Assembly: GCA_963924565.1 (NCBI GenBank)
Contig: OZ004612.1
Span: forward strand, 29,078,001-29,142,000
Source: Ascidiella aspersa
Lineage: Eukaryota
Reading direction: 5' to 3'
DNA: 64,000 bases
Shown: positions 16,801-44,500 of the stretch, piece by piece
Layout of the letters: every line of letters starts with the position of its first letter
Position numbering within the stretch: the first letter of the stretch is position 1
The notes under the pieces: model-generated
What the model was told of the DNA's origin: nothing
Databases searched by the model: none
Seen by the model: the letters and a program-made list of their open reading frames with translations, nothing else
Translations under genes and position numbers: made by a program

Positions 16801-19800
16801 TTACCACTCAAAACCTTATTTTAAAAAATATTTTAGGTGAGTAATATATCCGATGTATATGCGGCACAAAAACTTTGCTCGTGCCTATTGTTGTACGTGC
16901 ACGATACTAATATTTTTGAATGACAAAAACTTGTACTAAATCACATGGTGAACATTTTTGAGAGGTCTCACATGGAATAGAACAAGCGTAATAGGCAGGG
17001 TCGTCCGTGCAATTTGTAAGTGTTGTCCAACTGTCTTGATATTGAACTGTTGGACACAAAGGATCTGCGCTTGTTATCTCTCCTGTGTGGACGTGAATGT
17101 CTGAAAACACACAACGTTTTTTTAGCATCAAAAGTTTTTGGAATAGTTTGAAGTGCTAACAGGTTAACTTTCACAAACGAGGTGTTTTCTATTGTCAATG
17201 AGGTTTTATGAGACACTGCTTATTGGTCGCCTAAAAATCTAGTTAAAGCAAACACGGTCTAATACTGTGGTTAACTCGACCATGCACAATATTTTATACA
17301 ACACCGTTTAACACACCGTTTGGAAAATAATGCAATAGTTAGAAAATATGATGACAATGTTGCCGTTGGATTGTTTCTATCGACAAAAATACCTTTGAAG
17401 ACAAATTTACTTCCTAAGAACTGAAACGTTCATATACACAATATGTATTCTGTGGCAAAGCCCTTTTCGAATCGTGCTGACAAATGATGAATAAAACAAG
17501 ATACTTTCGGTAGGGCTTACCGAAATTGGCCAGCCTAATCAGGATTAACGTTTAAAGTGATTAAAGTAAGACCCAGCTGGAAAAACAACCAGCCTGCGGT
17601 AAGGTTCGAACTCACGACCTCGGTCATACCAGGATTAGGTTAGGTATTACTAAAATTTGCTGAAATAGTTACTTGATAGTCTACATAGAATACCTGGGAC
17701 ATAAAACTCTCCAATGTTGGTAAAACCCGGTTCTTCGCTGTCGCTGCTTTTAAGCTTTACAGATCGCGTGGAATCCGAAACGAACAACCAGATCTTCTTG
17801 AATCCATCAGCGGCTGTTAATTTGCCGTAAAGCGAAAATCGAAGCTGCCAATCTACAAAACAAATTTATAATTGCAAAATGAAATAAGCTTGCAATATCA
17901 AACCTTAAGTTGGTGTACAGATCTAGATCAAAAGTAGGTCATTTCAAATAACTGACGCCAACTTTTGAAAGTAGGCTATCTTACTTTAACAAATGTAGTG
18001 AAACTTAGCTTCGTGCTTTTGTTTTTTTTAGACAAATTGTGCCATGGAAGAATCATTGGTTTATTATGAAAATCCATTCTATTGTCATTAACGATTGAAA
18101 TTTGCGTCTTTAAATTCGGGTATAGCATTATCAGGCCTAAATCAGTCGCCTATAGTTTGTAAATAGTCTAGTGTTGTAAAATCACCAACCACTTTCGTCG
18201 CAACTCGTTGTTCTCACTTCCCATTTTTCTGCGGTTCGTTTGGCAACGCAAAAGTATAGGAGATGCCGATCAGAAGTGTTCCTATCACATAAACGTACCT
18301 GAGTTATTGTGAGTTGGTGTAATGTTAAATAGTTTTTCTACAGCTTGTTTACTTTCCAAGGTTGCAACCTCTAGAAAAGTTGTATGCGGTGTTGATCTAT
18401 GTTTGTTTAATGAATAATCTAGACGTAGAATAAATATCAAAGCCCATACAGAAGTATAGCTAGCAGTTTGAAGGTTTCGTATAATTCTTTAATCATTTTA
18501 ATGGTTGAAAAATAAATAAAGAATTATTCGAAACGTTAAAAATACTACCTACTTTTGGGCCTTGATAATCATTCTACGTCTTCCAACTTTGAACCATTAT
18601 GCTCCAAAATCTATATTTGTTTAACGATTTAAGGTTTGTGTATTGGTTGAAGAGTGCAAAAGCAAAGCAAATCGAAGTCTCTTTTTATTGTTGGTTTTTA
18701 GAATTTGCTTTTAGACTTGTTAGAAAATACCTTGTGAAAAACATGTTCTGCAATAGAGAGACATTGCAACAAACTATGAAGGATGGGTGCTAGGCATACG
18801 GTTGTTTTATTTACTTATAATTAAATTTTATTAAAGTAAACGTTTTAGTGGTATTGCTTAAGTTTGTCCCATGTATTTCTTTGAACATTAAAAAGCTGCG
18901 GTTTACTTGCTGGCAACGTATAAGCCCAAGAAAAAATTTAAACCATGCCTGTTGTATAAATCGACGTAAGCAAGATGATCGCTTTCCGTTGGCGCTTCCC
19001 AATCTTCTTCTGGTGTGTCCGAGAAAGAATACTTGTACGTTTGGTTGTCGCTTTTCATGCGGTAAATCCACACTCGCTGGATGTCTGCAAAGTGGAAATG
19101 AATGAAGAAGGTTGGGTTCTATATTTGTGGTTCAACTTGAGCTAATGCTGTCGTTTAAAGACTGCACTGTGCGTAGAAGCAAAATTGTACTCGAAACGAA
19201 GGGATGTAACTGACTTTAATGAAATGTGAAATCAATTGAATTTAAAAATACAAAGCTTAAATCAATCTGCAAAGCTGTAGCCTACTAGAAAAGTATCTGA
19301 ATTTTATTTGAAACGGTTTACGTTTCAAAGTTTCATCAAAACAACGTATAGTACCCTAAACACGTAAAGTTCACAAAATATTAAATCCATTACACCTACA
19401 AAGATTTCTTGAGTCTTAACAAAACTAACGTCCATGAATACGTAAAATGATAAGAGTACACAATTTTTTTTTCTCTCTTTTTGACAACAAAGGCGTTTTA
19501 AATTAACATGCTTTTATATTGAAATACACACGACAGTTATATATAAGTGAAATGTATTTCTCCGTTGGGTCTTTTCATGGTTGTGTTAAAAAAATAAGCT
19601 TGTCATTTTATTAGTAGCGTTTTAATTTTCTCTGCTTATAACACAGTCATGTATATATTAAATAAATACATGCAGTTGCTGCCACGCGCAATATACTAAA
19701 AAGAAACTTTTCACCGGTACCTAGTTATATTTCTCCAACGTTTCGGCTACCGATACAGGATTTATTGGTAGCCGAACGTTGGAGCTACTAAATAAGCACC

Positions 19801-22800
19801 GGAAGACATTCTTTTTAGTGTCTAAGGTATCTTACTTGTATTTTCTTAAAACATTTATTTACCAAATAAATACTTGTCGGTTATATCTGAATAAAGCTCC
19901 CTGGAAAGCTGGCTTTCGTTGAAGCGTGCAAGAGCGCCACCCAGCGACAAGCAGGTACTTGCGGCCGCAGCTGGGGAAGCGAGCGAATCGGAAAGCGAAA
20001 TGATCGAGTCGCCCCGACTTTGAAGCGACGGCTGGCAAGCTGTGAGTATAGAATGTTTTGATTACACGTAACTTAACATTTACAGTGGTGCAGCAAAACT
20101 GTTCTACGTGAGCTGCGGTTTGAGTTACAGGATAGTTTTGCGTCAGTAAATACATACAGGGCCAAATAACCGCAGACGCAAGTACGTTCCGGGATGGTTG
20201 TTTACAATGGGGCAGAGATACCAGTTGTTTGGACAGTATAGCCTGGCGACTCGTCTGCGGAAATTGGATTTGAAAGCAATAAACCAGCCTAGCCATTGGC
20301 TAACTAAATACATGAGAGAAGGTAGTGCAAAGCACTCGGCGGACGGAACGAACTAACCTGGGTGAACTTGGCGCGCCGAGATTTGATATTTATACTTTAC
20401 CGGACCCTACTTTTGCGGCGGCACTGAAAACCTGCTTAGTACTATGATCAAGGTGTAAAGTCGTTAACGTATCAAGCGTGAGTATCATATAGTTCGCAAA
20501 ACTACGAAAACATAATGTTGAAATGCAAGTTTTAATGCTTTGGTCGAGGTCATGATTTCAAATCTTATGAAAGGTTGTTACAAGGAATAAGATGCACCTT
20601 GTAACTATCTTATTATTGGGTCTTTTACTGGATTTATTACCGAGCCTATGACTTGTATAGATTAAGAACATAACTAGGTTAAAGAGGTTAACATGAATCA
20701 ATGCAAATACCCTGTATCGGAAACGTTGAGGAGATTAACCGAGTAAGGCGACCAATTACGAATTTTCGTGCTAGCATTGGCAATATGTTCGTTTCTTGAC
20801 TTGCTCCCCTCTTGAGCGTGTATTGCTCAGTTGGTAGAGCGACCGTCCTGGTATGACCGAGGTCGTGAGTTCAAATTTAACTGCAGGCTAGTTTGTTTAG
20901 CCTTACCTTATTTGGACTACAACCTCTATTATACTGTTTCGGTAATGGCCATGCCAAACGTCAACATATCAACCCTTTACCTTTTGGTGGGGCGGGGTTA
21001 ATGCAGTTGCCGGCCACTTTGTAATTTTCTGTACTTCCTTCGCAGTTGAAAGCGATTATCTGTGCATTAAAAAAAGTATCAAAAAACCTACAGATAAGAA
21101 ACTACTTTCAGGCATAACAAGTTTGTCTATCTATTTAATCTCTTTCCTAAATAATTCTTCGCTATTTTTTAGGAATTTTCTTTTGGCATTTTACTTCTCG
21201 AACACTTTTCTATTTTCTCAATACTAACTAATATTTAAATGGTATGAATAAAAGCAATAGGAAAGCAAAATACGTGTAAACCTCATTTGTCATATTGTTA
21301 TAAAAACATTCGTAGAAAGCGGCGGTTTTTAACCTTTCGGAAATCGTTAAATGGATTTCAACAAAGCCATTTTAAGTTATAACCTACAATTATCCAAAAA
21401 ATATACAGCACTAAAACGGCATAATTCACAGTCAAATATACAGTAAAAACTTAAACAAAATAAAGGCTTTGGAGCATAATGGTTGGAGGTTGTAGTAAGA
21501 CGTAATAAGAATATCAAAGCCCATACAGAAGTAGGTATCATTTTGGACGTTTCGAATGACTCTTTATTCATTTTCAACATGAATAAAGAACGTCCAAAAA
21601 TGATACCTACTTCTGTATGGGCTTTGATATTCTTATAAAATAAAGGCTGATATAATGTTTTATGCTATTTTACCTGCGGTCAACGATAGCATGCGATATC
21701 GTTATCCAAATTACCCTCTTAAAATTGTAAAATTTTATCACTGCTGACAATTACCAACCAGGTATGAACCACTGGTCTAAACAGTAAGCAAGTTTTTAGA
21801 CGTAGTCTTACTCCGGGAATATTTAGCACGTCAAAAAAAGGTATCCAAATACTACAATGTGCCAGAAACATATGTTTTAACGATAATGTGCATGTTTTTG
21901 ACTAAATTGAATGTATAAGGTTTAGGTATAAATTAGTAAAATTTAAAAAATAACTCGTATACTTGTCACACCGCAAACTGAACAAAATGAGCCATCCTAT
22001 GCTGCACTAAATTATGGTCTAAGTCAGAATTTCCTTTTAACAGATATGGGAAGTAAATATGTTAAAGCAACCAACTAAAGGGTGGATAATTTTTAATCAC
22101 TGTATTTTAATTTATTGTTCCTTTTTTTTAAATATCTACAGACTATATCGTTTACATTATATTCAAAAAGTATAATGTGCGCCATTTTATTACGAAAGTT
22201 GATTTTATTAAAAGAAAAATATTAAGCAAAATGACAAACTAATGTTTAACATGGCTGCTATTTTAAAGTGGAAAGAGCCTTATTATTTAAACAAGTGTTC
22301 CTCTTTGTTTAGTGACAACACAAGACTAATTGTAAGTAAAACAACAACGTTTTTGGTACCCCGAACTTTTTATAATCTTAAAGTAGCAAAACACAGAAAA
22401 AACAGCATTAGTAACTTCAAATTTAATATTATAAGCCATGTATTACTAATACTTTCACAATTTGTTTATTTTAGTCGAAATCTTGCTCCGAATCAATCTT
22501 ATTAAATCTACCCATATAAAACTAATGCAGTCACCCAACGAAATCGAACGAAAAACGACCACACCCAATGTTTAAATGCAGCCCATGAATTGAGAAAAAT
22601 AAATTTAAACAAATATACAACATGCATACTCGATGAGTGTGCAATGGCTATCAGTGTACTAATGATATGTAAGCCGTAATCGTTGGTCAAAAAGCAGCTT
22701 CAGAAGGGCTAGATTCTAGTTTTTAACATACATATGTGTGTACATATGTTTCATTGAATATACAGCATATGATAAATTCTATGTACTTACCGCAAAACGC

Positions 22801-25800
22801 AGCTCCCCTAATCCAACAAATTCGCTCATATTAATTGGAAGTTGGCAAAAACTATCGTCGCAATATTCGCTTGTAGTATTGTATTCCAATATCTTTCCAG
22901 TTATGGCTCTTATGCCAACCTACAGTGAAAAAAAACGTTTTAATCCCGCATTATTTAAGTTAAAAAAACGTGCAATTCTCGTTGTAGTTTTAATAAGTTT
23001 AAATTTAAGAATAGCTGGGCCAAACGCCTTTATCAGTGAATATGCTTCTATCTTCGAAGTGCTTCCTTAACTAAACTCCTTAAATCTAAAATATTTTGTT
23101 TTGTTAAATTTTGGTAACCTTAAAAAATGCCTGGGCATTTCAAATTATCTATTTATAAAGTTTTGGCCACGATAATGACGTAATTTGGTATCAGATCGGA
23201 TCGCCGTTATTTCTGTTAAAAATATATAAATTAATTAAAGAATTCTCTTACGTCAAAGTTAAACTGCTCTCCCGGTAGCGGATTCATAAAGTTCATTTGG
23301 CAACTTTCGCCCGATTTGATGACGTGAGAGTTGATGATCTCATCAGGTATTCCCGGTCCCATTTGAACCTGTTGTAGTGACGTAACGTTGGTGATGTCAT
23401 CACAACCCAAACTCGCAGTCACCTGAAAAGTAAGTTTGTGTCTGCTTTGTTCTTCATATTCAGAAATGTAACGTATATGGCTACAGGAAAAGATACACTC
23501 CTTTAAAAAGGGTTGCCATCATTTATCGATAAAGTTTATACTAATTTAGAAGGTATTTACCCTAATCTCTAAAATTTATCTAATTCATTGGTAATACCAA
23601 TCTATTTTTATAATTTCAAGTAATTGTTCTTTTTGAAATGTTATAGTTGTTTTAGATGTGCCCTGTTTTTTGTTTTTTTCAAAATGTATCCAAATTTTTC
23701 AATTTGACAAAACGTAGGTTTTAAAAAAGGACATGCTCAGTAGGCTAGTGATGAATGTTTCCTGGGCACAAGGACTTAATACTTCAAGTTGCACTTTTGT
23801 TGTGAGTTTCACCGTTACACTGTACTCGAGACGAGGTGTGAGCCCGCTTAGTATCGTCGAATTCTTGTCAGTTACAGTCAGGGTTGTTGGACTGACAGCA
23901 TCGTTCGTAGCTACAATGTGAACCTAAAAATAATAAAAAAAGTTAAAATCTGAGGATTCCCATACTGCGTTGTGGGGCATGAGGTAAGTCTGTAGAGTTA
24001 AGCAGTCTTGCCTTAGGACAGGGGCGTTTGCTTAAAGACAGGGGTCCAAAACTACGGCCATGGGGCCAGACCAACCCGCTTGATTAGTTAATCAAGCCCG
24101 CGGCATATTTCCTAAATAAAGGCGAAGTACAGTTGAAATGTTGCCGGATCCAATTAGAAAAATTTTAAACTTAGCGACAGCTATCTAAGACTTACTGCAG
24201 TTATTGTTGCATATAGTTATTTATATTTCCTTTATACTTTATAATATAAGTTTGCTGACCCCTTCTGCGGGATACATAAATAACGTGATTGGATTCCAAT
24301 ATATAACCTCTTAACATAAAAAACAAAGGAATTATAAGCAAAGCAAGTTGTTTAAACATGCTATTATCGTACACTATAAAAGATCTACCGTTAGTGTCTT
24401 GCTGAATTTATTGGCAAGTGGCATCATATTCCATCTAATATCCAGTGAAGTCGAATTGCATTCGAACTTCGTAACGTTGAAAAAGACTGCAGGAAAAAAA
24501 TGAAAGTTAGCCATTGTCCGATCGCAGTTCTAATAAAACGGTTGACCATTAATAGGTTCACGGTGCACTAAGTTTTACGGAAAGCTTATCCAAATCAAAC
24601 CGCCGTAAAATTTAAATAGCATCTATTAATAGTGCCCATCAATTTCGCAGATTTCTTACATTTGGAAATCAGTTGGAACTGCCAACTGGAAAGTTGTATT
24701 ATATTAATGTTGACAAGCTTTGGCACAGCCGTGCTTGATCAGTTTAAAATAATATAAAGCACGGTCGTGCGAAAGCTTCATTTCAACGCAATTATATTTA
24801 CAGTAAATTTGTCGTTCAACAGTGCCACCTGATTTCTAAAATTAGAACTAGACACAAACAGCTATCAACAAAACTTACCTATCGCTTATCAAGAGTAGAG
24901 ATGCTGTTAAAATTTTATATAGTGCCACATAATTTCCAAAATTTGAGAATATCATCAAAAACTTACATTTTGTTTGGCAAGAGTAGAACGACTTGGTTTG
25001 GTTGCAGTTTGTGGTCAACTCCTCGTTAACCAAGTGGCTCCATACTTTCTGCTGACAAGTAGAGAAACCCCGGTCTGTGAATTCAGGGGCTACAACCCCG
25101 TCATTCCAGTACCACTGGTTCTCCATGGGGTTAAACCGAGCTCCGATGAGAACGTCGGTTACTGAAAAGAATAATAGGAATAAGGAGGATTTTCAGGTGG
25201 TGTAAATAGGCTACGTTATTTTATGTTTCATGACTGATGCATATTTTCAGTCCCAGGACTGCCGCCTAATTGTGGTTAGACCAGTAACGATAAAGTAGTT
25301 GCGAAATGACTCTAATACAGCCTTTCTTAACCTAGGGTAAATTTTCTTTTTTTAGGAGGTAAATGAGCTATCAATCAAAGTATCCACATCAGTTGACTGG
25401 TCAGAAAAATTGTGCCAGCTATGGGTGTTGGTAGCCTACTTTCCTAGTTTATATCAACTGCTAATTCGAAGCTAGCCAATAGCTTATTTATTCTTTGTCA
25501 TCTAGCGTCGGTAATGGTATGCATCGCTACTGGTTACTTCTTTTAGTTTATTGGCAACATCCTTATCTCTCAGTTGCTTCATTTGTCGTTGCCAAAAAGT
25601 ATGGGCAGCTGTTGAATATAACTGCTGTAATTTGTTAAATTAGTTTTTTAATTATTGAGCACCATTTTATATGTTGGGGGTAAATCTAATATTCATCTTT
25701 GTTGAAAAGGTAAAACATAAAAAAAGGAACCCGGCTCGAATAGAATAATCAGTATTCTATCGCAGAACACGCCGACGCCCAGGCGTTTTTTTAAATCTTA

Positions 25801-28800
25801 GCTAATCATGTGCATGTGTAGATTGGTTTCAAGGATGACCTTCTTAAATGAATAACCCAATTAAAAACTGGTTCACAACGATATGATTTTTTTATTCCCG
25901 CTTCTGTAATCTGGTGACCTTGTTTATATCACATGAAACTATATTTTTGCTTTTTATGATACAAATGTGCGACTGTTTAACATACAAAGTAAATAAGCAC
26001 ATAAGGGGGTAAACAAAGCATATTATTTTCAAACAAAACTATAACTGGAGTAGTAAAACAAAATGTTACAACGTAAATCAAAATACCTGGGGCTTGAATA
26101 ACACTTATCAACTTCGGTCAGATATTATCGGACCTCCCTAGGCCATAGCTAATTATTTTGAGACAAACTTAATATAGGACTAGTAAAACAAAATGAATAT
26201 TTTGTTGCAGCTAATTAGTCATTGTATCAATGGTAAAACTGTTTTTCCGGCAATTTTTATATAACCTATGCAGGAAAAACGAAATAATTAATATAGGACC
26301 AGTAAAGCAACATGTTACAACGTAAATCAAAATACCTGGGGCACGAAATTGTCCCCTTTTCAAGATGGAAGTTCTGTAAGGCTCGTCGACCGCAGTTAGG
26401 CGATCGGTGATCGGAGGTGATGGCGAGTAGTATTTGTATATTTCTTTAAATCGTGGGTCGGTTGGTGAGTAGGTGGTGTAGAACTTGAAAACTAGATGCC
26501 AACCTGCAGTAGATATTATGTATTGGTCAAAATCAGTATTCTATGTTACACCTGCCCTAAAACTTTACCGGGAGAGAGAGAGATAGCTGATCTGCAGAGA
26601 TTGTACTTTGACCTAATGAAACACATTTATGCTAAAGCTTGAGAATCAATACAATTTGTTTTTATGTAATGGCACCTAATTATCCTATTTAGAATTAGAC
26701 AAATACTGCCATTTGCAAAGATTGGTCAATATAAGTTGATGTACCTTGATTATGTTTATAGGATTTGTATTGGGCAATTACCCGATACAAAATGGTAGTA
26801 TCAGTACCAAATGAAACATATTGGAACGAAAATTGGATTCTCAAAAAACAAATTTGGATAATTCTTAGTTTATTATCTGTTTGTAATAACTTTGTTTGCC
26901 TTAAGATTTTCCGTTGAAGACAGTAGCCTATGTCACGATTATGGATATCCGATATTTGACGTTTTATTCCGATACTTTGGGTATCGAGATTCGATCAAAT
27001 ACCAAATGACCTCATCGTTATGCTAAAACAAGAAAAATAGATAAAAAATCAACGGTATTTTTCCAGGTGATTAGGTCAAAATTTCGGTTATCTTTAAGAA
27101 GTTTATTTATACTTCCAGATGCAACTACGATTTGTGATTAAACGCAGCGATTTCTATTTTGAAACTTAACTTATTCAAAAATACGACGTAAGCGACTAGA
27201 GATAACTAAACTTGAAAGCTGAAAAAAAAAACTTTTAAAGGTTTTAATTTCATCTATTTTGTTTGTTTATTTGGTATCAGCTTTTTGTCCAAAACATCGG
27301 TATCGGAGTAGTGTGTCAAGTATCGGATAACCGTGATATGCTGTTTTTGACTAAAAGGCAAATTTTAGGGCAAAATAAGTTATTACAAACAGATAGTAAA
27401 CTAATAATTATCCGATTTTAATTATTTGACAATTCGATTTACGTCCCAAGATGTTTTAGTTATATATTGAATATATCAAATTATGAATTATATTTTAGAT
27501 ATGCTTTCCTAGACGTTTGCTGTTAACTCGTTTAATTTTAACTAAAAGTCGTATTTCGTTTACATAAAAATGATAGCCCAAACTATTTCGTCTTAAAAAA
27601 CTTTTAGTATAAATAATTATAGTCGAAGAGGTGCTAGCGTAAAAGAGCGATCAGGGTAAATAGCCACTTCCATTAAATATACGTAACGTGCAATTTGAAA
27701 AGCCTGTCTACACAATCTGTACCTGGGCTACATGTAACTCCACTGTCTTCAACCAACCACGTTTCAAATGTAACGTTATATCTGCAAAAGCTGATTGGAT
27801 TGTTCGATGTATTGGAAGAGCTGTGTGAAAAACATACATGTAAGTAGCAATGTCCGATAAAAAGGTATCGGGGACGGATTTAGAGACGTGGGCACATGAC
27901 CACACTTTGTTGAGGTATGACGTAACATTGTGATGTCACTTTATGACGTCATGTATTACGTAACTCTGTAACATCACGTAATTACATAACTTCGTGATTT
28001 CTATGCATCACGTTTCGACGACATTATGACGTAACTTTTTGTGACGTCGCGTATTACGCAACTTTACAACGTCGCGTAATGACCTAACCTAGTATTTTTC
28101 CTAAACAAAGGTTCGCGCCTGAATGATAATATTCGATAATATCGGGTCGTTGCCGGGACCAAGTGACAAGTATCGATACTCGTCCCACACCAGGGTTGTA
28201 TCGGTGCCGATGCGATACCAAATTAACATAGAGATTATTGCCTTTAAATTTACCTATGAACGTTTCAAGTTAAATGTTTTGATTCTTTGTGCATTGATTT
28301 TTTTAATTACGTCATGTGGTATCGGATTGTTACGGTACTACGTTCTGGAAAAAACATGGTGTATCGGTATTGGAATCACTGAAATAAGTTTTGAATAACC
28401 AAAGCTTTGACCTTTCAGATCGTAACTTGTGTATTAAGTAACGCTCATCAAAATTAGCTAGCCCTCCCAAGGAGTTTATGCAAGAATCGGAATACTTAAA
28501 CATGCCGGCGAACAGTATGATTTAAATTACGTTGTTTGTCACAACTTCTTAATTTTAGATGGTTCTTATGCTGATTTATCAATTCGGTTTATATTATGTT
28601 GTTACTCATTGTGTTATAGTCTGGTTAGGCTTACATTAATAAATTAGCTGGGCATTTTAGGTGTTAACTATTTATGCTTATTACTCGCCTGTTGTAAAGA
28701 TCGATATACCACGTCTGGCCGAGAACTTGAGTGCTGAACCATTTGGATTCATTGTTTTCTGGTGATAGTGTGTATTGATAGAGATCTGTGCCATTCGGGT

Positions 28801-30170
28801 GTTCTGAGTCGTAGTATATCCAAATTCTCTGCAAATCTAAGACCAACAAGATTGGTAAAAACGTCATTTTTTTCTAGAACATATATAAAAGGGCGTATCT
28901 TCATAGAATCCAAAACCATTGGCAGAAGGTTTCTGCTTTTCGATCACTGTTTCGCTGACGCGTATATTAACAATAAAACTCAAAGTTGAATACCCCGAGT
29001 TAACCAGGTTCACACATTTCAAAATATGTATATATAAATTTCGCCTATACTGGCATCGTCACTTCCTTACTTCGAATGAATGAATTCCCTTTGAGTTTTA
29101 TTGTTTATTGTCATACAGTTTCACTGTTGATACGCTAGATTCTCTGCGAATCTATAAAGGAACGAAATAGGTACGAAATGTCAGTTTTTAGTAAAACAGT
29201 TTCACTGTTGATAATCTAGCAAACCTGCAAATTTGAGAGCAACAAAATAGGTACCAAATGTCAGTTTTTATTAATACAGTTTCTCTGTAGATACTCTAAA
29301 AAATATAATTTTTTAGCCATACACCTTTTCTGTTGACACTAACCTCCAGAATACTTTGATTTGGCTCCGTCGGTAACGATTTGCTTGACATCTGCTTCTC
29401 TGGTGACAGACAAATATCCACCTAGCTCTTCGCATCTTTCCTCTGCCGTATACGCATCGCTCAACTCATCCGATAAAGTGATCACGCTGTGTCCGTCCGA
29501 TAAGAGATCGGGTTGGCAAACTGTTGAATTAGATTTTCTTACTTTTTTTAAACTGTTTTTGGTGCTACATAGCCTACTATCGGTGCAATGACTTAAGTAC
29601 ACGTTTTTTTCATTTACTTGAATGAAGTCTTAAAGTATAAAATGGCTAGACGTGGACTTAAATCATTTGTCTTGGACCTAAGTTATTACAAAGTACAACA
29701 GCGCTACGCACATTATAAAAGCGAAAGATTTATACAAACGTGATCAACAACTGTGATCTAGCCCTTATTGGAAACGACCTAGATTAAAATCAGATGTTTT
29801 AAATGAATACTATTTTGATAAAGTTGGGTTATTTACTTCATTTTTTGACTCTACTTGTTATTTTTTGCGAATTACTGGACTTGGTCGTAAGTCGTAATAA
29901 GAATAACTAGTTTTCAACAATTTTCTAGCCTTGCATCATAATTAATCGACAGTATCGATTAGTCTGCCATTAATTGTATTCGGTGTCTTAATGATACACA
30001 AGCCTTTATCGTTGGTCACAAAACAGCTTCAGGAGGGATATATCTCAGTTAATAAACTCATATATGTATGTATCTTTCATTTACAACAACGCTACGTACT
30101 TACCTAATCCCATTAAGGGCTGGAAACTATACAACAGAAATAACCAGAAAACAGCACATTTTTTATTCAT
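10890..30170 (-). CDS. Receptor 2: type I membrane protein, 2x[split CTLD + ABC insert + 2 FN3-like] + TM + short tyrosine-motif tail (~977 aa)
   Basis: 24 phase-consistent exons: 30104-30170 (signal peptide MNKKCAVFWLFLLYSFQPLMGL), 29344-29520, 28689-28836, 27723-27820, 26336-26503, 24967-25161, 24389-24486, 23813-23923, 23252-23422, 22791-22919, 20981-21059, 19863-20039, 18949-19084, 18190-18281, 17694-17852, 16972-17100, 16377-16486, 15457-15567, 14749-14919, 12945-13073, 12331-12391, 11732-11834 (TM AVVVGSICGGLAAIGLLVGVCYCCG), 11121-11149, 10890-10975 (TAG stop). Total 2934 nt, open frame; two introns need GC donors. Confidence 0.85.
19696..19819. repeat. Short hairpin element
   Basis: actaaaaagaa...ctccaacgtttcggctacc / ggtagccgaacgttggag...ttctttttagt. 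Confidence 0.65.
20790..20900 (+). mobile_element. tRNA-like repeat copy
   Basis: gctcagttggtagagcgaccgtcctggtatgaccgaggtcgtgagttc. Confidence 0.75.
21472..21636. mobile_element. Palindromic foldback/MITE family (aagaatatcaaagcccatacagaagtagg arms)
   Basis: Near-perfect inverted arms aagaatatcaaagcccatacagaagtaggtatcatttt / aaaatgatacctacttctgtatgggctttgatattctt. Other copies at ~15095-15300, 18420-18605, 30746-30915, 31895-32072, 33300-33372, 40859-41030, 51765-51930, 59825-60020. Confidence 0.85.
25318..25734. mobile_element. Degenerate hAT-like MITE
   Basis: Begins cagcctttcttaacc; flanked by ctctaata / ctcgaata (7/8); right TIR decayed. Confidence 0.45.
26820..27450. repeat. Long imperfect inverted repeat (~150-bp arms), foldback-like
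   Basis: ggataattcttagtttattatctgtttgtaataac...tccgatatttgac (~26856-26960) versus gtcaagtatcgga...gttattacaaacagatagtaaactaataattatcc (~27315-27413). Confidence 0.7.
29116..29300. repeat. ~80-bp tandem repeat (~2.3 copies)
   Basis: acagtttcactgttgata...aaataggtac-aaatgtcagttttta repeated. Confidence 0.7.
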
Positions 30171-32589: not shown

Positions 32590-35500
32590 TTAATTAACAG
32601 ATACGCAGTAAGCGTTCTCCTCGTTTGTAATCGCGATCGGAACACTCGTCACTTCCGGTTCCGCTTCCGGTTCTACTTCCGGTTCCGGTTCGTCTTCCTG
32701 AAAGTTTTGATTGACATATTGGTGGAGTAGAACGGGCGGATCCATAGCTGCCACGTAGCATTCGATGTAGCGTTCCTGAAAAGGTAAGCATTTTTTCTTG
32801 TGATATCTTTAAAATGAAGTCCGAATACTTTGACTACGAAAAAAAATCCAACAAATAAATTTTTCTTTTGATAACAGAAATAAATATTACTATATGAACT
32901 GTTGCTACCAGGCATAATATTAATCATAAATAGCTCTTTAACTTTTATATCTGATAGATTTTAGCTGTGAGTAATGAAATTCGTTATACGAAAACCATCG
33001 AATTTGCTTTTTTCAAACAAATTCTACAATCACCCAAAACGCATAAAGGTGTCATCTCTTTAGTATATTTTTTACCGGAGAGTCCACCATGTTTGGTCTC
33101 ATATCTCGTAGATCTTTAACAATGCGGAAAACGTCCACCGTGTCATTGGACTTTAAACATTCCAGAATGTTCACCAGGGCAATGAAAGTTCCAGTTTTTC
33201 CACAGCCGTTCCTGAATACAGCAAAGTGTAGTGTTTTTTTAAATCATGGCATTAATTATTGATTTGATATAGCTAACAAACTATAAGATAGGCGTAGTAG
33301 GGAATATTAAAGCCCGTAAACAAGTAGGTAGCATTTTAAACGTTTCGAATAACTCTTTAATTTTTTTCAACATAGTGAGAAGCCACTGATTCTAAGTATA
33401 TATATACTGCCGAGGCAAAATATCATATAATATGATGTGTGTAAGTTAATTTGTCTACAATTAAAAGCATAGACGCCCAGTTTTCATAGTGGGCTTTTTA
33501 GCCTGAAAGCGAGTCTTTTTAACATTAAATAGAAACACGATGTTTACATAAACCAGCAGTTTAAAGATTTTGTTTTCTGAAGCATACTCACTTGCAGCAA
33601 ACTACAACGTATTTTCCACCATTGCGTGCGTTGATTTCCTGCATTTGTGCGATCAGTTTAATGAAATCGTAAGCCATGGGAGGTTTGTCTTTCCAATCGT
33701 TTGCTTGAATAACGCAAACATCACAAGATTCCTAATCAAGTAAGATTTTAACATACTTTTAACATGTTATTTGTATTAAAAGGATGCAGCAGGCAACCGT
33801 GCTATAGTTGTTTGTCGACTTGCTTTCCTCGGAGCCTGTGTAGCTCAGTTGGTAGAGCAACGGTCCCGGTATGATCGAGGTCGAGAGTTCGAACCTCACC
33901 ACAGGCAAGTTTTACGAACAAGATGCAGCAGGCAAAGGAGCTATGGTTGTTCTCGAATTCGCCCCCCCCCCCCCCCCTCTGAGCCTGTGTAGCTCGATCT
34001 TCGCGGTAGAGCGATGGTCCCAGTATGGCCGATCGTGAGTTTCAAAGTTCTCCACAGGCGAGTTGTTTTTCTAGCTTACCTTGCTTTCGACTGTTTTGGT
34101 AAATTTGTCGAAGGCTTTCGTTGTAGAAGTACATTGAACATTTATACATGCAAACTGTACAGAATGCGTAATCTTATCATTCAGGAGTCGCCCGTTTGAT
34201 TAACGATAATGTTGTACCAATATGTCTATGATTGTTTTAGTGACTTGATAGGGTACAATAAAACCCATTCAATCTGAAGTGGTTTGTACAAATAGGTGTT
34301 ACAGTTGGCTTTTGATGAGTGATTCACCTTTAAACTGGTTACCTCAGTCCGGCGATCGATGTTCATTATATGACTAAGGTAGTGCGTTCGAACCTCGCCA
34401 CAGGCTAACTTCGATTGCACGCAATCACTTATGACATAGCACATATTAAGAGTATATTACCTGGTTAGTTGTAGAGATAGAAACGTCGTGGATTCTGGCA
34501 AATGGAAGTTTCGCTGTGTTGGCTACTGCTAAACTTATGCCGCCGTACTGTTTCATTTTTGCCTTGAATAGCTTCTTCTGTAAATTAAAGAGCTGTCTTC
34601 GAGATTTGGTAAAGTTGTCTGCTTGATATTACCAGTGATTTTTAATTGTTAAACTGGAAGGCGATTCAAATTTGCAAACAAAAAAAACGTACAATAAGTA
34701 AAATTCACATTTTAAAGACAGTAACGAGACACATATACTGTATGGAATATGTCAATTGATTTACCGTAGTAAATAAATAAGAATGATAGCATTATTTTTC
34801 ATCAAAAATTCGACTCAAAACTTTGCGGTCACTGCACTCCAGTTTGACAAACACTGATATAGACACACTAACTTACGGTTTCATCAAGACACACAAGAAC
34901 GCTGACGTTTTTGGCCAGTAACATTTTCCAAAATTCTTCCTCTTTTCCCGCTACTGGACACTGGGTGGCGATAAAGTGTCCGCCAAACCGGTTCTGTAAA
35001 GCATACGGCTTTAAATTTACCAAAATGCAAACTTAATACAATAGGTAACCTTTTTTATATGGCTGACCCCTTTTGCTTTTTAACATGATAGCGTGTCCCA
35101 TTCCTTTTAAACCAAATAATTCTTTTATCTAACCCTACAATAATTAATTACTCTCCGAATACTACTCCAGCAAGCTAAACTTTGTGAACACAAGCTGAGA
35201 TGCTTTATTATCATTAACATTTAAGTAATATGTAATGACAATAATGCCCTTTAGCTAATATAATGTAAATCAAATCACTTAAAAGATGTTACGTGGGCCC
35301 TTAAAACTTCTAAATAAAATCCAGGTTGAGGAACATTACTTTAGAGAAACCTGTCCCTTAAATAATTACCTCAATGTATGAAGCATTCGTTTTTATCTCC
35401 ATTTGTTCTGTTTCAGACCATATCTTGACTGCGTTGCTGTTATCTATATATTGAAGTATTTATTGTTTATAATTTAACTGAAACATCAAGTAAATAGCCA

Positions 35501-38500
35501 GCAAAACCTACAGCAAGTTAGAGACGAATTCCCAGGCACCCATTCCGCTCCATAATTCCATTCGTCCAAAATTTTGAATTCTTCTTTCGCGATATGGACT
35601 CTATATAAAATGATTCTCACGTAATAATGTATGGCAAAAAGGGGTGCCTTTTCAAAGGCCTACAGCAACTAGTTATAAGTGCAAGGTTTGAACTAGTCTT
35701 TGGCGAGGTTCGAACTCACGACCACAGCATAACATTTTTTTATTGTATTATTATTATTATTGCTAGTCAGGATATGTTTAAGGTTTTATATCACAGATGT
35801 ATACAAGAACATTACGATTTGTAAGGTAACTAGTTTAGTTCAACACTTAACTGCCGTACATTTGTTCTCTCGTCATTTGCTGCAACTTGTCGGCGTTGTA
35901 ATCTGTGTCGGGTAGGGACAGGTGTTCCAACAGCAATCTTCGAATAAATGAATATTGCTCCTGAAAGAAAACAACATTATACAGCATGACTAAAGTAGTT
36001 TATTAAAGTCGTTGTTATTTTTCTTAAAGCAGGATGTGGTATGATACACAGATTTTCGTAGAAATTTCTATAAAAACTATAAAATCTAACATAGGGATGT
36101 CCCCAACTTTACATTATATATACTAATACATTTAAAAAACAAAAAAAATTGCTTTAGAATAAGAACTTTACATCAGTTGTTACGTGCTTTGATAAATTTA
36201 CTTTTAAAGGTTGCGATGCACCGGTATATTTTTCTTTGCGAACGTTTCGTCAATAATTCTTGCCATCGCAGTGTGAAATAATTTAAAATGAAAACGCAAT
36301 AATCGACAAAACACACGGTAATCGGCAGAGTAAGCTCATTTTACACACCGACGATGACATGAGATGTTGCCGATACGTTTGTAAACACAAATATATGTCG
36401 ATTTTATCGAAACGTCTTGTATTTCATAGATGTTATAGTTTTTATAAACACTGTGTGTATCTTACCCAGTCTTGGACCAACTGAGATTTATGTTGTTTCA
36501 ACTTTACAACCGTATTATTTAAATCCACATTTCCTTTGGTATCTGCCTCATCGAAAGCAGTGTCCATTGCAATGTAAACACCAGTCAGTTCTTTAGAGGC
36601 ACTGAAATTATAAAATAAATTATTTTTGCACGCTAAGAAATTTTATTTTCTGTTGGGGATCCAACTTGAAAAACATTATTTCAAATTTCTAACTTTAAAA
36701 TTGCTTAGCGTTTTCTTTTAGCCTACTTGTCAGACAAACTTTCCTTTAGATTAGAAAGCCGGTAGTATTTTTTCAGAAAAGAGCACTTTCATTAAGATAA
36801 ACGAATATTGATGCTTTGTATGGTAAATATTGTACCTTCGCACCTTTGAAACGGCTCACATTTGTTCATTTCACTCTAATAAGTCACAGTTACCTGCAAT
36901 GAACGGTAATTGGATTCCTTCTGTCGTGACTTTCTTCGACCATTTTTCGCAAGTGAATCAAGCTAGTTGTAGTAACAGGTGTTCCGTGGTCAGGCCAGCC
37001 AATGAAGTGGAACTGAGTGACAGGGCGTTGTTCCTGGTACTAAATATACACACACAAAAAAAGCTTGTCATTTCCCTAACACTGCTTCGTGTCCCAGTGG
37101 CCGAAGGCTTAGTTTAAGAACTCTCTTCTGGTGTAAACGAACTTATAAAGCGACGTTTTGGCAGCAGACACTAGCTAACCACAGGTATATAACTTCGTTT
37201 ACACCAGAAGAGCGATTTCTATCTATTGATACTTTATTCAGGTTTAAGTTTTAATTTTACACAAATTTGAATAACAAGTAATTACTTCGATTGTCCCAAG
37301 TTCAAGCTTCCTTTGGATTATGTTTCCAAACCGCTTTTCCTCTAATGAATTTATCCTGAACCTTCCGTGTGTTGAAGTTGACAATAATTGCGGCCAATAT
37401 CGTACTGGTTTGGTCTGATATAAGATTCAGATTTAAACGTGAATGGCAAATTAAAACGGTTTATTTCAAGGACGGTTACCTTGGCTTGTTTTTCGCTTAT
37501 CATCACAATGGTTGAGCAGTTCTGTTGCCAAATCAATTTCCAGAATTCGTGAATCGTTGTCGATTTGGGATCCCGCGTGGATATGAATTTAGACTCGTTG
37601 TTGTAACCCTATTTTCAATTTAGTATGAATTTAAGCAAACGTTGTTTGTGCAATAAAAAAGAAAGAAAGATTAGAATACTTTGTGTAAAATAACACAAAG
37701 ATTTTGTTAACCTAGCTTACCGGTATGTAAGGAACGTTGTAGTAGTCCCTTCCCGCTCTTGTTCTTGCTTTAAAATTTTTACAAAATTTAATTGACGCTA
37801 CATCATTCATTTTCCAATAGTGTTATTGGTAGTCATTTGTACTTACTTGAATATAAGTTTTTCGATTTGTACCTCGAAGCATTGCGTTTGTTCAACGTTG
37901 CAGTCAGAATGCTATTAATTCCTAGACTTGAACGCAACCCCTATAAAAATGTATTTTACTTAGGAAAAACAAAACAAGAGTCTTGATAATTTACCACTCA
38001 GTGGCGCACAGTCAATGTAGTGCACAAAAAATATAATGTATTTCTCTGATGTTTTGGTTTGGCCGATCGGTAAAACACACTACTCTATTTTTAAAAGCGT
38101 GGCAGTGTTTTCAAAGAGTAATTTAAACCTTGCAATTGGATATTGACTTCCATATTCTAGTTCGATCCTCGTAATTGTTCTTAAACGGAAAAAAGGGACT
38201 TTTTAATATTCTACATAGCCACCGCCGGAAACCAACTTACATTGAACTGGTCTTGGCAGTCTTTAAAGTTGTTTTGTGAGCTCAGCAGATAGTTGTTGTA
38301 TAAGTCAGATTTTAATCTGAGTCTTTTAGCCTTGGGATCATTTTCGTCGAAACTAGTATCTGTAACATCAACTAAAAGAATTGTTAAATAAAAAGTCGCA
38401 TTATAGTTGGTAACTCTTTGCAAACACTTTCTTACCATCTGGAAAGCTCCACTTGCGCTCGGAGTCCACCTCTCCACCTCTGTACGTTTAAAATGAAAAA

Positions 38501-41500
38501 AGGTTATAAAAAAGCTACATAGCTTAGTCAGTTTATGGTTAATGTAGCTCGAAATTACTGAATAAGGTTGTTTTATAACGTTGGAACATAATTGACCTTA
38601 GCGAACATGCTGTTTGGGATAAAAATTGGCGCTATGGCAGTATAAATGAATTTTACGAAATCGGAATTAATCCTGCACGATTTTGAAAGTGCTCAATCAG
38701 CACTCGTGTCTAATATTATTATCTATGGTTCAGTCACAATACCTTACCTTTTACAATAGCAGCAGCAAGCAACGCACAAAGCAATAATAAGCAAGATCGT
38801 TATGATGAGCAGAATTAGTGTGATACTGGCCATTCCTAAATAGAAGAAAAGTTTGATATATTTGCTATGGTTTATTTTAGCTGCACACGAAAAGTTACTT
38901 TTTGCTGATTTGCAAAATCCATCCACTGCCACCCATTCATTTGGACCTTCGCATGTTGTAGCTCTAATCTGTGTTAAAATTATTATGTGTTGTGTTTTTG
39001 TAAACGTGTTACAATTATAGCAAGTTTACCTGCGCAGTTATGCGAGTTTTATTTCCGTGTCCTTGAAGAGAAATGTTCATTCGATGTTCCGCGTTAGGTT
39101 CTGTTCTTGTCAAATCGTATTCTTGGAACGTTGTGTTTGATGAACTGATGACTTTAACCTGAAATGTCATCCCTGTTGTTGAGATTTTCGTTGGTTTAAC
39201 TTTTAACGGTTTTCTAAAGACCGGGAAAATTATTTTTACGAGAAATTGATATCGATTTAAAAAACAATGTTTAATCCTTTTTGTTTATTTTGCAATGTGC
39301 TCGTATCTATTGGTTCCTAAAGCATTTACATTTTAGTGACTTGTCGCTTAAATCATAGGCGTAGCCAAGGGGGGCTGAGGGGCCATGGCCCCCCCAAAAT
39401 TTATAAATATTTTACTCTTAATAATTTGTTTTTTTAGCATTTTTGAGCAGTACCACAACATTTGATCACAGGCATGCCACACTTTCAATTCTCATGTACT
39501 GTTACGTCACAAACGATGTAGTTAATATAACATTTACTATACATTAATGTAGTTTTACTACTTTCAGACAGTTTTTGCTCTTGGACTATTTTTTTAGTAT
39601 TGCGTTAACACTAATTCAGTTGCTGCTCGAAACGGTTTGCTAGCATTGTGATGTGTGTTCGTTGCGGCAGTTAATACAATGGTAAAAGCTAAACGAAAAA
39701 TTCCAACTTTTTGGCCCCCCAAAATTTTCGGCTGGCTACGCCACTGGCTTAAATGCACCCTACGTTGAAACAAAGTGTGCCTGAAAGTACAGAAAGGTTT
39801 GAGGAATACAAATAAAAGTTGATTTGTTTAAATAACGTTGTTTGACCCTGGCATTGTTTCATGTTTTAACTTTTTTTAATAATTACCTCTGCCACATTTT
39901 AAAGCTTAACAATGCACAATTGTTGCAATTAATTTCCCAAAAAACACACAAAATTTCTCCGTTGTCGGTATCACCAAGAAAAAGTACTTTCATTTAACTT
40001 ACTGTGTAGCTGAGAATATTTCCGCTCTCATCTGACGGCATAACGACTGTGCAAACCTTTACGGTTGATTCTATCCTGGCTTTTGTAACGGGTTCGGCCA
40101 AACCGTAGCTTGTGTTAGCTGATAAGGTTGAATGCACAGACCCGCTGAAGCAACGACCAAATAATGCAGCCACCTTTAAACAATACACACTGTAAACACG
40201 AGTTTATTTGATATGGAATTTGCTACTTTAGATTAGGTTTGCAACCGTAATATCCTTGCATCAATATAGTGCTGTATATCCTCGAAAAAACGTTTATCGG
40301 GTGGGCAATAAAGAATTAATCTGCCTTGTATTTCGAGGCTACCATTTTCAAATGGTTACACTTTTGTTGGTAATTGGCTTGATAGATAGCATTAGTAAAT
40401 AAATCTTGTGGACTCTATAGATAAATGGGGCCTAATTGTTGCATGGTTTGCTATTTATTAACTCGCAATTGTTATGTATGGAATTACTTCTGCTTGGCAT
40501 TATATATTATTAGAAAACGTGCTTTAATTCGCAGTAGATAGAAACATGGAGATTAAGAGTCTTACCTTAAAGGTGTATTTTGTACGTTTTGTTAGATTCC
40601 CAATGGTCGTAGTGAGATCTTTATAGTCAACACGTTTGTCGGTGATGTTTTTACCGCTTATTACCACCTGCTTAATACATTGCGTTGATAATATAAAATG
40701 ATAATTCATGCTCAGCTAAAACATCGCGAAAAATCAAAACAAATTATATGTTAAACACAATATCCAGTACCTCTTAACTAGGCCGCAGCGAATTTTAAAA
40801 TATAGAAATTTTCGGTGAATTACCGTGATATTTACCGCATTTTAAAAACATTCGTTGATGTAGTAAGAATATCAAAAATAAAGCAGAAGAAAGAAGCATT
40901 TTGAAATTTTTCAATATTTCTTTATTCATTTCAAAAAAATAATATTTAAAACGTTCACAAAATGCTACCTACTTCTGTATGGGCTTTGATATTCATTCCA
41001 CGTTTAACTACAACCTCCAGCCATTATCCTTTAAAAACATGCTGATGTTATTAAAATAATAAGTATAAAAGTGGACGTTACCGTTATATTCGAGCAGTTA
41101 TATTTGTCTTGTAACTTCAGCAAGTTGTCTTTCCAACTGACTTTAAGTTGTGTGGAATTGCAAGTAACCGGCTCCAATTTTGGTTCAACTGCATATCAGA
41201 TGAAACATTAACGTGCAATAGTTCGTTGTAAAAGCTTTGTTTTAATTCATTGACAACGAAACGCCTTCATGCTCCTTACGTATTGCCTTGAATTGTATTA
41301 AAAACGATTGAAAAGTTATGAATATATTGTTTTGTAAAAAGTGTGCGACTAGTTTTTAAGTTTATTAGAGTGTGAGAAGCAAAAAAAGAAGTTTTAGATC
41401 ACTGCCCTATATTCTAATTAAGCTGACCTTTACAGGCAATTGAATATTTCTTTAATTTAAAGATGTTCATAAAACCGTGAGTAAAAATGTAGTAATTTGG

Positions 41501-44500
41501 AACATTTCTTTAAATTTTTCGTCATTACTAATGTTTGAATACTATTGCCAATGTTTGTTAAATTGATCAGAAATTTGTATCATTGTCATACTTACACTTT
41601 ACTAGGCAAGAGTAGTAAGTGTCACTATCTTTACAAGCCTTGTTAAGAATTTGATTACTATCAAAGTCCCAAACTTTCTGCTGGCAAGTTGTGTGACCAA
41701 CATCTGTGAACTCTGTAGCATTTTCACCATCGCTCCATTTCCATTGTTGGTTTGACTCATTGAATCGAGCCCCGATGAAAACTTTAGAGTGTAAATCTAC
41801 ATAATAATGAAGTCTATCAAAAACGTGAGGCTAAGGTCAGTTTCATGACACACATGGAGCACATGGCCATAAAGTCCCCAAAATATTTTTTGCTTGTTTT
41901 AACTACAAAAATTAGAAAATTTAACTCTGCGCAGGATCTGATTTATCTTTCTAGCATGTTTTTATTATACCACTTTAATACAATCGTTTTAGCTCAAAGG
42001 CATCTTACGTCGTTTTACACGCCCCCAAAGAAAAGTGTGATAACTTAAAATGCATAAAGCGCGAATCGAAAACATCTTCTCATAAAGCTGTTGAATTAAA
42101 AGCAACACCTCTCCAACCTAAAACTTTAACGATATAAACCAGCTGTGTAGGGATCTTATGGTTATTTCTTTATGTTGTCACGTTTCGATAAAACTTTATG
42201 ACATCATATTTGTATGTAACTTTATGACATCATATTTGTATGTAACTTTATGACATCATATTTGTATGTAACTTTATGACGCGTCGTTGTTGTGACTTTG
42301 TAATGTCCAGGTGTGAAGTACCTTTATGACCTTATCCCTGAAAAAAAATTACTGCCAAACAACAAATTCTAAATGCGCTCCTAGAATTTGGCTATGAGAT
42401 GTTAAAGTAATATGCTAATGATTTGTTTGGTATTTTTAACTTTTTTATATTGTATATATTGCACCAGATATGTTGCTATCGCACAAAGCGTAGAATCTCC
42501 CCTTTTCGTTCATGAAGTCTAGATAGCTGTCGTCTTTTACATCTGTAAGTCTCATTGACCATGGCTCCCCAGAATTGTCGTATGAGTAGATCTCCTTGGA
42601 ACCCGGCTCATGCGTACTTTGCCCGTATAAAAGGAACATTTCATTCCAATCTTAAAGCGAATAAAGAATATTTTTTAAGCGAAGGGTAAAATTTCTTGCT
42701 GTATCGATTGTTTGGAGTTTTTAGAAGCTGGTGATGTTTTATAGTAGTGAAATACATCTGATCAAGTTGACTATACGGGCGTTAATGTTTCAAAATTGGT
42801 CAGATCCTTATAGTATTCAATTAAACAAAAAGTTGCAACTAAAAATAAGAGTTAAATGTTTCTCTAACTTACAGTCTCATTATAACAAAGCCTTATAAAA
42901 CGATATTATTGTGTTGTGTAGAGTAACTTAGCTTCAATATGTTCATCATGGGTATATTCAATTTTGGTCAATATACCCTCAAGGGTTCAGACTTAGCTCT
43001 AAGAAGTCAGAACAATTCTTTAATTTGTATATACTCGGGTTTAGCCTTATCTGATTGGGCATAGCAATTTTCTTTATAGTGATTTGTTTACCTCGATGGC
43101 AGGTTCTATCCACCGAAACCAACCACTTTTCCACTTCGCTTTTTGACTCACAAAACCGTATGGGGATTGTTGACGGCGAATTGTCGCTTCTGTGACGAAA
43201 CAGTAACAGTCATTTAAATTCCCCCGTATATGATAAGGTCAACGCGGAGAGGTTTTCAAAATGTGCTTCGCGACGCCATTGTGCGTCGTTTCAATTTTCA
43301 AGTGCCACACACATTAATTATAATGTATCGTATCTTAACTCCATTGTGGTAACAAAATGTTCACAGAATTTATTACCTACTGACGTGAACAATATTGGTA
43401 CTCTAGATCCCCTTTAATATAAAGTTGCTTGTACTAGCATAATGTAACAAGCACTTACATATAGTTGTTTCTCGACTTGTTCCTGTCTGAGCCTGCATAG
43501 CTCAGTCGGTAGAGCGACGGTTCCGGTTAGGCCGGAGGTCGTGAGTTCAAACCCCATCCTAGCCTATATTTAATTTTCTAGCCTGCATTATTAAACGATA
43601 TATTTGGTAAGCCTGTGATAGCTTTCTGTGTACTACTAACATATGCATACGAGTTTATTGTTACTATAAATACTACAGTCCAACTTGCTGTAATTACTAG
43701 AGTTCAACAAAATTTAAAGGGAAGTAGGTTAATACAAAGTACTCACGAGTTGTAAAGATCAATGTACCACAAATGTCCGAGATGTTGGGGACTAACCCAA
43801 GGTGAAGACTCGTTTGAAAATAACGAATATTTGTAAATACTCGTTTTGCTCTTGTTGTAATAGATCCAAACTCGTGTAATATCTTAAGTGACAAAAGGTA
43901 TTTATGAGTTCTAAGCAACAATATATCTTAGCATCTTCTGATCGGCGTTAACGTTATTGGACTTTGACATATTGTTAAATCTTAAATAAGTTTTTTCAAT
44001 TTATATCGTTAAAATATAGCAGAAACCCTAACCAAACGTTACATTATTTAGGGTACGAAACGTCAGTACATGTAAAAGGTAAAAGTGCGTAAGAATGCTG
44101 CCTTTTATTCAGTATATTCATCATACAGTGTTTCAAGCGTTGCTACCTGGTACGTAGAAGGTTTCCCGCAGTTCGACGAAACCTTGGTAAAAATCGTCTT
44201 TCACATTGGTGAGTCTCATCAAAGTTGAATTATCTTCGTGACTGTAGGAGTAGATTGCTTGGTAGCCCGGCAACTGTTTGCTGCTTCCGTATAACTTAAA
44301 TTCTTCCGTCCAATCTACGATAAAAAGCCACACAATTTTGAATAACTGGCTGTATTATTGTTATTACCGTAGCTCGATCGATAGAGCGACGGTTGCGGTA
44401 TGCCCCGAGGTCTAGAGAAGTGGTTCTCAACCGCGGCTCCGAGAGTATTTTAGCGGCTCCCATTAGGGTGAAAGCAATAAAATGAGGTTAAAAAAATAAA

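Follow-up and report, generated by a model that had tools for sequence, protein, structure and literature searches.

A three-exon cassette in the split C-type lectin domain of an expanded ascidian receptor family, probably DUF5648-like in fold

The closest described counterpart of the protein domain treated here is DUF5648 (PF18885), which the portions of the sources at hand describe as a three-bladed beta-alpha fold, as opposed to a prism or trefoil, and which is also known as the '(beta3 alpha)3' domain of GH70 enzymes and as the C-terminal domain of the BSAP-2/-3 cluster. The domain in question is encoded by three small exons, A, B, and C, on the minus strand of a 64,000-nucleotide stretch of the Ascidiella aspersa genome (contig OZ004612.1, positions 29,078,001 to 29,142,000; referred to as the window), and is called ABC in the following. 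It shares with DUF5648 the length, the division into three units of about 45 amino acids, the aromatic strand pattern, and the top structural neighbors, and both are accessory extracellular modules thought to bind surfaces. However, ABC is not matched by the hidden Markov model of DUF5648, its repeats have diverged almost past detection, and the confidently modeled part contains no helix; it differs further by a putative disulfide in repeat 2 and by its location, split into three exons, within the lectin domain of an animal receptor. The best structural matches, at the same residue ranges for models of both domains, are the C-terminal domains of 9uj0 ('Aegerolysin-L pore') and of the GH174 fucanases (9k1g, 8jd7), although the scores of the ABC fragment are weak (Z 3.1-4.1, 7-12% identity). 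No paper on 9uj0 was found in the literature searched, and the available part of a paper on GH174 (PMC11943901) contains nothing on the C-terminal domain.

In animals, tyrosine phosphatases are usually encoded by a few dozen genes, whose roles are fixed. Some of the receptors carrying ABC resemble PTPalpha/epsilon, LAR/sigma, and CD45 in having a transmembrane segment followed by two phosphatase domains, D1 and D2, with the catalytic D1 signature (WPD, HCSAGVGR) kept in most paralogs, but their ectodomain is a split lectin with an insert, and they occur as dozens of tandem paralogs with variable heads, including dead and phosphatase-less forms. Similar heads on differing signaling tails are also found in the Ly49 and KIR paired receptors of vertebrates. 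The same feature, together with expansion in clusters, characterizes the fester family of Botryllus and its co-receptors (PMC12065747). All these receptors have immunoglobulin, sushi, or plain lectin heads and tails with ITIM or ITAM (immunoreceptor tyrosine-based inhibitory or activation motifs) that recruit a phosphatase, whereas here the phosphatase is built in. No description of the ABC receptors was found in the literature searched (listings and abstract starts, with most subscription journals outside coverage), and the family is apparently undescribed. In the main text of an ascidian genome paper (PMC13746493), the words phosphatase, lectin, and fibronectin occur 0 times, and PMC5336234 deals with R3 phosphatases, with a few Ciona genes.

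A cassette set within a split C-type lectin domain

The focal module in the window consists of exon A (28689..28836, minus strand; phase 1 in and 2 out, with a GC donor), which holds repeat 1, exon B (27723..27820, minus strand; phase 2-1), which holds the first two strands of repeat 2 and a Cys pair, and exon C (26336..26503, minus strand; phase 1-1), which completes repeat 2 with its last strand and encodes repeat 3. An earlier sequence-only reading had placed an uncharacterized beta domain at 26336..28836, and these borders turn out to be the exact splice limits of the three exons. Motif and frame scans likewise recover its five full modules and the one partial copy, which is reduced to its A exon by the edge of the window. 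Script splicing joins each of the five modules in frame to 128-140 amino acids without a stop, at pairwise identities of 28-46%; the 3' end of one C exon (second module of the upstream gene, about 42480) is uncertain. The intron phases, 1-A-2-B-1-C-1, make the cassette symmetric, so that it can be duplicated without a frame shift. A GC donor is needed by two of the A exons in the window, at the same A-B intron (28688 and 18948, minus strand), and by 2 of 121 A exons overall.

The cassette sits between two halves of a C-type lectin domain, which are encoded by a 177-base exon ahead of A and a 195-201-base exon behind C (29344..29520 and 24967..25161 for the focal head, both on the minus strand). 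The N-terminal half carries a strand, helix 1, and helix 2, and the C-terminal half carries the WIG-type strand and the Cys pattern expected of the C-type lectin-like fold. Profile searches agree with this assignment: the top matches of the N-terminal half are lectin domains (best E 3e-7), and 11 of 12 matches of the C-terminal half are lectin-fold chains, each of them weak (best E 0.048). Since the EPN/QPD and WND motifs are absent from all 68 C-terminal half exons inspected, including that of the focal head, the host domain should be regarded as a lectin fold without the usual sugar site. The order of exons was followed in the loci examined in detail, which cover about 1.2 Mb of contig C6 and part of the clusters given below. 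Exon A comes next after 84 of 100 N-terminal lectin halves and the C-terminal half directly after none, while 128 C exons are followed by the C-terminal lectin half in 82 cases and by another A exon in 27, giving one to three cassettes per lectin head.

Single-exon searches of the genome return 150 matches for A (of 163 candidates, E up to 10), 131 for C (of 133), and 115 for the C-terminal lectin half (of 122, E up to 0.001), all of which are lower bounds. Nearly all of them (147, 130, and 114, respectively) map to contig C6, where they form clusters near 5.1, 7.3, 8.0, 27.9, 29.0-29.6, 30.1, and 31.3-32.6 Mb. Within single 10-kb loci, A, B, and C could be spliced to 84 modules with a median of 135 residues (range 104-148), which are stop-free partly by construction, because the picking of splice sites rejected exon limits that bring in stops; fragments and a few stop-bearing copies do occur in the family. 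No intronless ABC copy was seen among the loci examined, and one open frame runs through B and C. Each of six loose versions of the motifs named in the sequence-only reading is present in 79-84 of the 84 modules, and the Cys pair of exon B is kept in 81. Inverted and partial duplications of heads are present inside the 31.6 Mb cluster (L062 9074-9289; L066 1612-1827 and 3758-5154). Lone exon fragments without a surrounding gene, which are pieces of A or of the C-terminal lectin half of the 29 Mb type, are found on C3, C4, and C5 (L118 5300-5460, L119 5480-5620, L120 5440-5560, L222 7599-7886), as if carried there by mobile DNA.

The RNA evidence, taken from 6% of one RNA run, with repeats crowding the alignments, consists of 3-4 reads on a single strand for exons of the focal gene (e.g., at 26362), 41-42 reads with paralog letters, all of the same strand, for exon A2 of the upstream gene, and 9 reads across a phosphatase intron joint. 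A profile of exon C finds 12 matches among 1.84 billion representatives, of which 4 are full-length, single exon-like open reading frames on metagenome contigs; the other 8 are summed propeller repeats (FG-GAP, PD40) and were rejected, because 17-38 positions were matched many times over. The DNA around one of these 4 frames, which represents a second animal (four near-identical loci with 41% GC), contains the lectin half, A, B, C, and the other lectin half in identical order and with identical phases. This animal also shows a mucin-like, Ser/Thr-rich frame behind the head and an FN3-like exon (L121 17812-18339). Word-based searches with exon alignments revealed no spliced relative of greater length among 989 (C exon) and 4047 (A exon) candidates, which is weak evidence.

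Fold and loops of the ABC domain

The domain was rightly taken as uncharacterized: in Pfam scans of 56 C exons and 41 A exons, each family found matches at most one exon of either kind. The lead to DUF5648, which the sequence-only reading had raised, holds weakly by sequence and indirectly by fold, through shared structural neighbors, but not by any match to PF18885 itself. With 15 real DUF5648 sequences, obtained from 12 of 903 genomes searched, a profile reaches at best 11 bits on the 84 spliced modules, and in the opposite direction the profile of the 84 modules matches the 15 sequences with P=0.0045, above all of 60 shuffles; profiles of the lectin halves, A, and B give P values of 0.15-0.42 against DUF5648. 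The two domains also agree in length (135 vs 134 residues) and in their three subdomains of about 45 amino acids.

Profile scans bring three strands into alignment, namely the first of exon A, the KAIY strand of exon C, and the opening strand of the DUF5648 repeat. In the register that fits best, the three units are formed by A, by B plus the start of C, and by the rest of C, each running strand-loop-strand-connector-strand with a spacing of about 45 residues. Repeats 1 and 3 match with P=0.0035 over one strand (11 columns, a score reached by none of 30 shuffles), whereas repeats 1 and 2 (P=0.11) and 2 and 3 (P=0.41) are at chance; the self-repeats of DUF5648 give P values of 1e-34 for comparison. 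The proposed three-fold repeat is faintly visible in the sequence for one pair only, and the thirds of about 45 residues are out of step with the exons, as repeat 2 spans B into the start of C. An earlier register that started at the second strand of A had failed, with an off-diagonal P of 0.069 in the self-comparison of the profile.

The sole natural frame that can be folded comes from a paralog and reads through B, an intron, and C. Exon C is modeled with a pLDDT of about 90 and consists entirely of strands. Among 48,161 PDB chains, 47 match this model at Z 2 or more, with 9uj0_A 349-435 at rank 1 (Z 4.1, root mean square deviation 3.9, 81 aligned) and 9k1g_B 385-477 at rank 2 (Z 3.5), and Foldseek again places 9uj0 first, at E 2.3. 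With a model of DUF5648 (pLDDT 96.5), no more than 8 chains reach Z 2, 4 of which are also in the list of the fragment, with 9uj0_A 354-482 first (Z 8.8) and 9k1g_B 385-477 third (Z 3.2). A first rank and a region common to both models appear hard to get by chance, though neither score of the fragment is strong, and they favor a helix-poor, DUF5648-like three-blade fold over the MABP or trefoil folds. We regard such a fold as probable for ABC, without filing the domain as a member of DUF5648, because the helix seems to be lacking. Further searches returned no match at E 0.001 in a viral fold library, none for exon C in the Atlas, and no convincing PDB sequence match for the profiles of A, C, or DUF5648; the A profile matches designed propellers at E 6e-4, with no stretch passing alone. 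As a side result, 9uj0_A 354-482 fits the DUF5648 model despite the lack of any PDB sequence match to the DUF5648 profile, and this solved domain may represent the first solved structure of the DUF5648 fold.

In the alignment of the 84 modules, the aromatic strands and the Cys pair are conserved and the loops diverge, as the sequence-only reading had it. With 16 segments fixed by the strand motifs, the hairpin loops between strands 1 and 2 of the three repeats are the three most variable ones at 31.6 Mb (17 modules) and at 27.9/30 Mb (19 modules), and are among the top four in the 29 Mb group (30 modules). The topology of the proposed fold would place these loops opposite to the termini, and hence at a distance from the lectin domain. 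The exon-wide ratios of non-synonymous to synonymous substitution rates (dN/dS) are 0.21-0.79 for A, B, and C, 0.30-0.58 for the lectin halves, and 0.09-0.28 for the phosphatase exons. The corresponding ratios of proportions (pN/pS), which are pairwise counts from 29-48 disjoint nearest pairs per exon, are 0.99, 1.31, and 1.17 for the three loops, while the strands are under strong purifying selection, with many columns under 0.25. Values near 1 indicate loops that can change freely, but do not demonstrate selection in favor of difference.

Receptor tails and gene layout in the window

Behind the heads, the loci examined encode FN3 domains and a transmembrane segment, followed by either a tandem tyrosine phosphatase or a short tail with a Tyr motif; the arrangement with D1 and D2 is present in part of the family and absent from the focal gene. 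In the 29 Mb cluster, the P-loop exons of D1 are canonical in 12 of 14 paralogs, and all 4 D1 P-loop exons at 31.6 Mb are intact. Degenerate P-loops of a shared form (..ELTG, without Arg) occur at G000:C6:29037549-29037812 and at 36445-36642 in the window, and the lack of the arginine predicts that both D1 domains are inactive. Within 140 kb at 31.57-31.71 Mb, three classes of transmembrane exon can be told apart: class a is followed by intact D1 and D2 in all 3 genes with readable downstream DNA, class b by a phosphatase in none of 5 genes and by a YENV exon in 3 of the 5, and class c by either type of tail. YENV fits the pYxN consensus of Grb2. The heads are 76-77% identical between tail classes and 76-83% within them (14 modules, one class call being uncertain), and such near-equal heads on differing tails are, as judged from the gene arrangement, a paired-receptor layout. 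The nearest named protein to one D2 exon comes from Phallusia mammillata (77% identity; 2 matches among 3 candidates), and this relative scores best with PTPalpha/epsilon, then with LAR/sigma, and then with CD45, in a similarity ranking rather than a tree.

The gene with the focal module probably has two heads, of which the focal one comes first, and ends in a transmembrane exon and a short acidic-Tyr tail (all coordinates in this paragraph are on the minus strand). The first head is followed by FN3-like exons at 23234..23923 (fn3 E 0.029), and the putative second head at 17694..20039 comprises a lectin half (19863-20039), A (18949-19084), B (18190-18281), and C (17694-17852); the two heads are joined because of the layout of the paralogs, not through RNA joints. 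The frame holding the transmembrane exon lies at 11731..11889, and the probable last exon, with the short tail and its acidic Tyr motif PVYEVI, at 10893..10979; no phosphatase exons were found in the window before the next gene begins. In two-headed genes (about 17100-16965 in the window, and the 29 Mb paralogs), the second head ends in a shortened C-terminal lectin half without the WIG-type strand and the long loop. The upstream gene has a head of lectin half, two ABC modules, and lectin half (41596..47034), with the modules at 46338-44147 and from 43882 to about 42480, where the 3' end of the second is uncertain, FN3-like exons and a transmembrane exon (38747..40715), and the phosphatase domains D1 and D2 with an acidic tail (32593..37608). 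Its D1 domain keeps WPD, and its P-loop reads HC-SASKELTG, with the Arg lost. The first head of the downstream gene (4173..8410) consists of a lectin half (8234-8410), A (7366-7525), B (6271-6374), C (4980-5138), and the other lectin half (4173-4367), and its second head (121..1190) is represented by a lectin half (1014-1190) and A (121-256), with B and C past the window edge.

The window also contains exons at 58190-49700 (minus strand) whose motifs suggest an SLC6-type (neurotransmitter:sodium symporter-like) transporter; they sit within the receptor cluster, and paralogs continue on either side. Two abundant families of short repeats are present in the introns (e.g., 1448-1543, 33804-33912, and 43461-43556; 21468-21580 and 30740-30914), one of them tRNA-like in look and the other present in very high copy number and transcribed on both strands.

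Competing readings and what the family may mean

The reading to which we give somewhat better than even chances is that ABC forms one extracellular domain of about 135 residues, present one to three times in the split lectin domain of receptors with more than 100 copies, likely with three DUF5648-type blades and with the variable loops as ligand face. A more far-reaching version, to be held tentatively and with chances clearly short of even, describes an ascidian system of more than 100 receptor genes in which a three-blade cassette of bacterial type binds glycans from within a disarmed lectin through loops resembling complementarity-determining regions, with a built-in phosphatase and with dead and phosphatase-less partners. 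In the first of these readings, each repeat of about 45 residues would consist of strand 1, hairpin loop, strand 2, connector, and strand 3, with the connector helix of DUF5648 absent or, for repeat 2, giving way to a loop tied by a disulfide. With both termini of ABC returning to the lectin, the latter may serve as a pedestal without a sugar site and the cassette as the recognition domain, and duplication of the phase 1-1 cassette and of whole genes would have led to a repertoire of heads. The role of these heads may be an immune one: they would bind non-self surface molecules, most plausibly glycans, and a bound ligand would bring receptors together or displace them and in this way alter tyrosine phosphorylation through D1. 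Receptors bearing a phosphatase would be expected to damp tyrosine signaling, and dead or short-tailed partners may act as decoys or activators.

Several results weigh against the reading of ABC as three DUF5648-type blades with a ligand face. The Pfam model of PF18885 has no genome match exon by exon and matches 0 of 97 exons, and the sequence signal to DUF5648 is confined to 23 columns of exon C and unaffected by exon order; the end-to-end alignment was down-weighted because permuting the exons left its score unchanged. The internal repeats are near chance, in a register chosen post hoc after a wrong first one. The fold model covers two thirds of the domain, with confidence for exon C alone and a pLDDT under 50 for exon B and the retained intron, so that three-fold symmetry is not seen directly; the Z of 4.1 lies below the tool's own trust level, and repeat 3 of the fragment model has no helix at a pLDDT of about 90, compared with three helices in the DUF5648 model. 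No A-B or B-C splice joint is among the RNA joints listed. The lectin halves are about as relaxed in their dN/dS as the ABC exons, and none of the three loops has a pN/pS significantly above 1. Finally, glycan binding by DUF5648, in grooves between the blades, is itself only proposed in the accessible parts of the sources.

The selection values suit a more neutral history, in which the same cassette and fold would be a spacer or a general adhesion module, multiplied as a by-product of a duplication-prone chromosome, with loops varying by relaxed drift. A pN/pS of 0.8-1.3 in the loops, nowhere significantly above 1, and the presence of fragments and stop-bearing copies agree with this, but drift of that kind would hardly account for the strong purifying selection on the strands, for the fact that in three subfamilies the variability sits in the matching loop of each repeat, for the far stronger constraint on the phosphatase exons, or for tails in alternating classes, and we consider it unlikely. 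If the loops do recognize a ligand, this might still be one of the animal's own polymorphic proteins rather than a microbial glycan, as in allorecognition, gamete self-incompatibility, or homophilic sorting, comparable to the fester and co-receptor families of Botryllus. Such a role would fit a lectin without a sugar site and the general rule that receptor phosphatases usually bind protein ligands. It would also fit the use of expanded paired receptor families in ascidian allorecognition, as described in PMC12065747. The nearest fold neighbors, however, belong as accessory domains to a glycosidase, to a pore-forming protein, and to bacterial proteins that target glycans, which leaves self-recognition a rather improbable choice.

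Doubts about the fold lead to two further proposals. ABC might have a different, non-repeating beta fold, such as a sandwich of the kind seen in phage Mtd (its second domain), in which case the likeness to DUF5648 would be a chance match of a single short motif; the weak internal repeats and the narrow stretch of 23 columns could be read in this way, as could the Atlas matches of the B+C frame to clusters of PF21916 mtd_2nd (feature matches of 0.90-0.91). Yet the Atlas query held the intron and its recognition value (1601) is in the weak range, no Mtd chain appears in the fold searches, two independent models share the top chain and region, and the sequence of strand, loop, strand, connector, and strand recurs three times at a spacing of about 45 residues, all of which make a non-repeating fold rather improbable as well. 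The MABP beta-prism or beta-trefoil that the sequence-only reading had in mind draws on three aromatic repeats of about 45 residues and on a likeness noted in that reading; neither fold is matched in the Pfam scan of 97 exons or found among the 47 chains at Z 2 or more or the Foldseek matches, where the query was the fragment only, and we regard both as very improbable.

If the reading of ABC as a DUF5648-like domain with a variable ligand face is correct, a chromosome with dozens of variable-headed receptor phosphatases and their dead or tail-less partners would represent, among the invertebrates most closely related to vertebrates, a new route to diversified recognition. It would also place a fold met so far largely in predicted bacterial domains in an animal setting where it can be tested, and would provide 84 natural variants of one small scaffold, varying in three loops.

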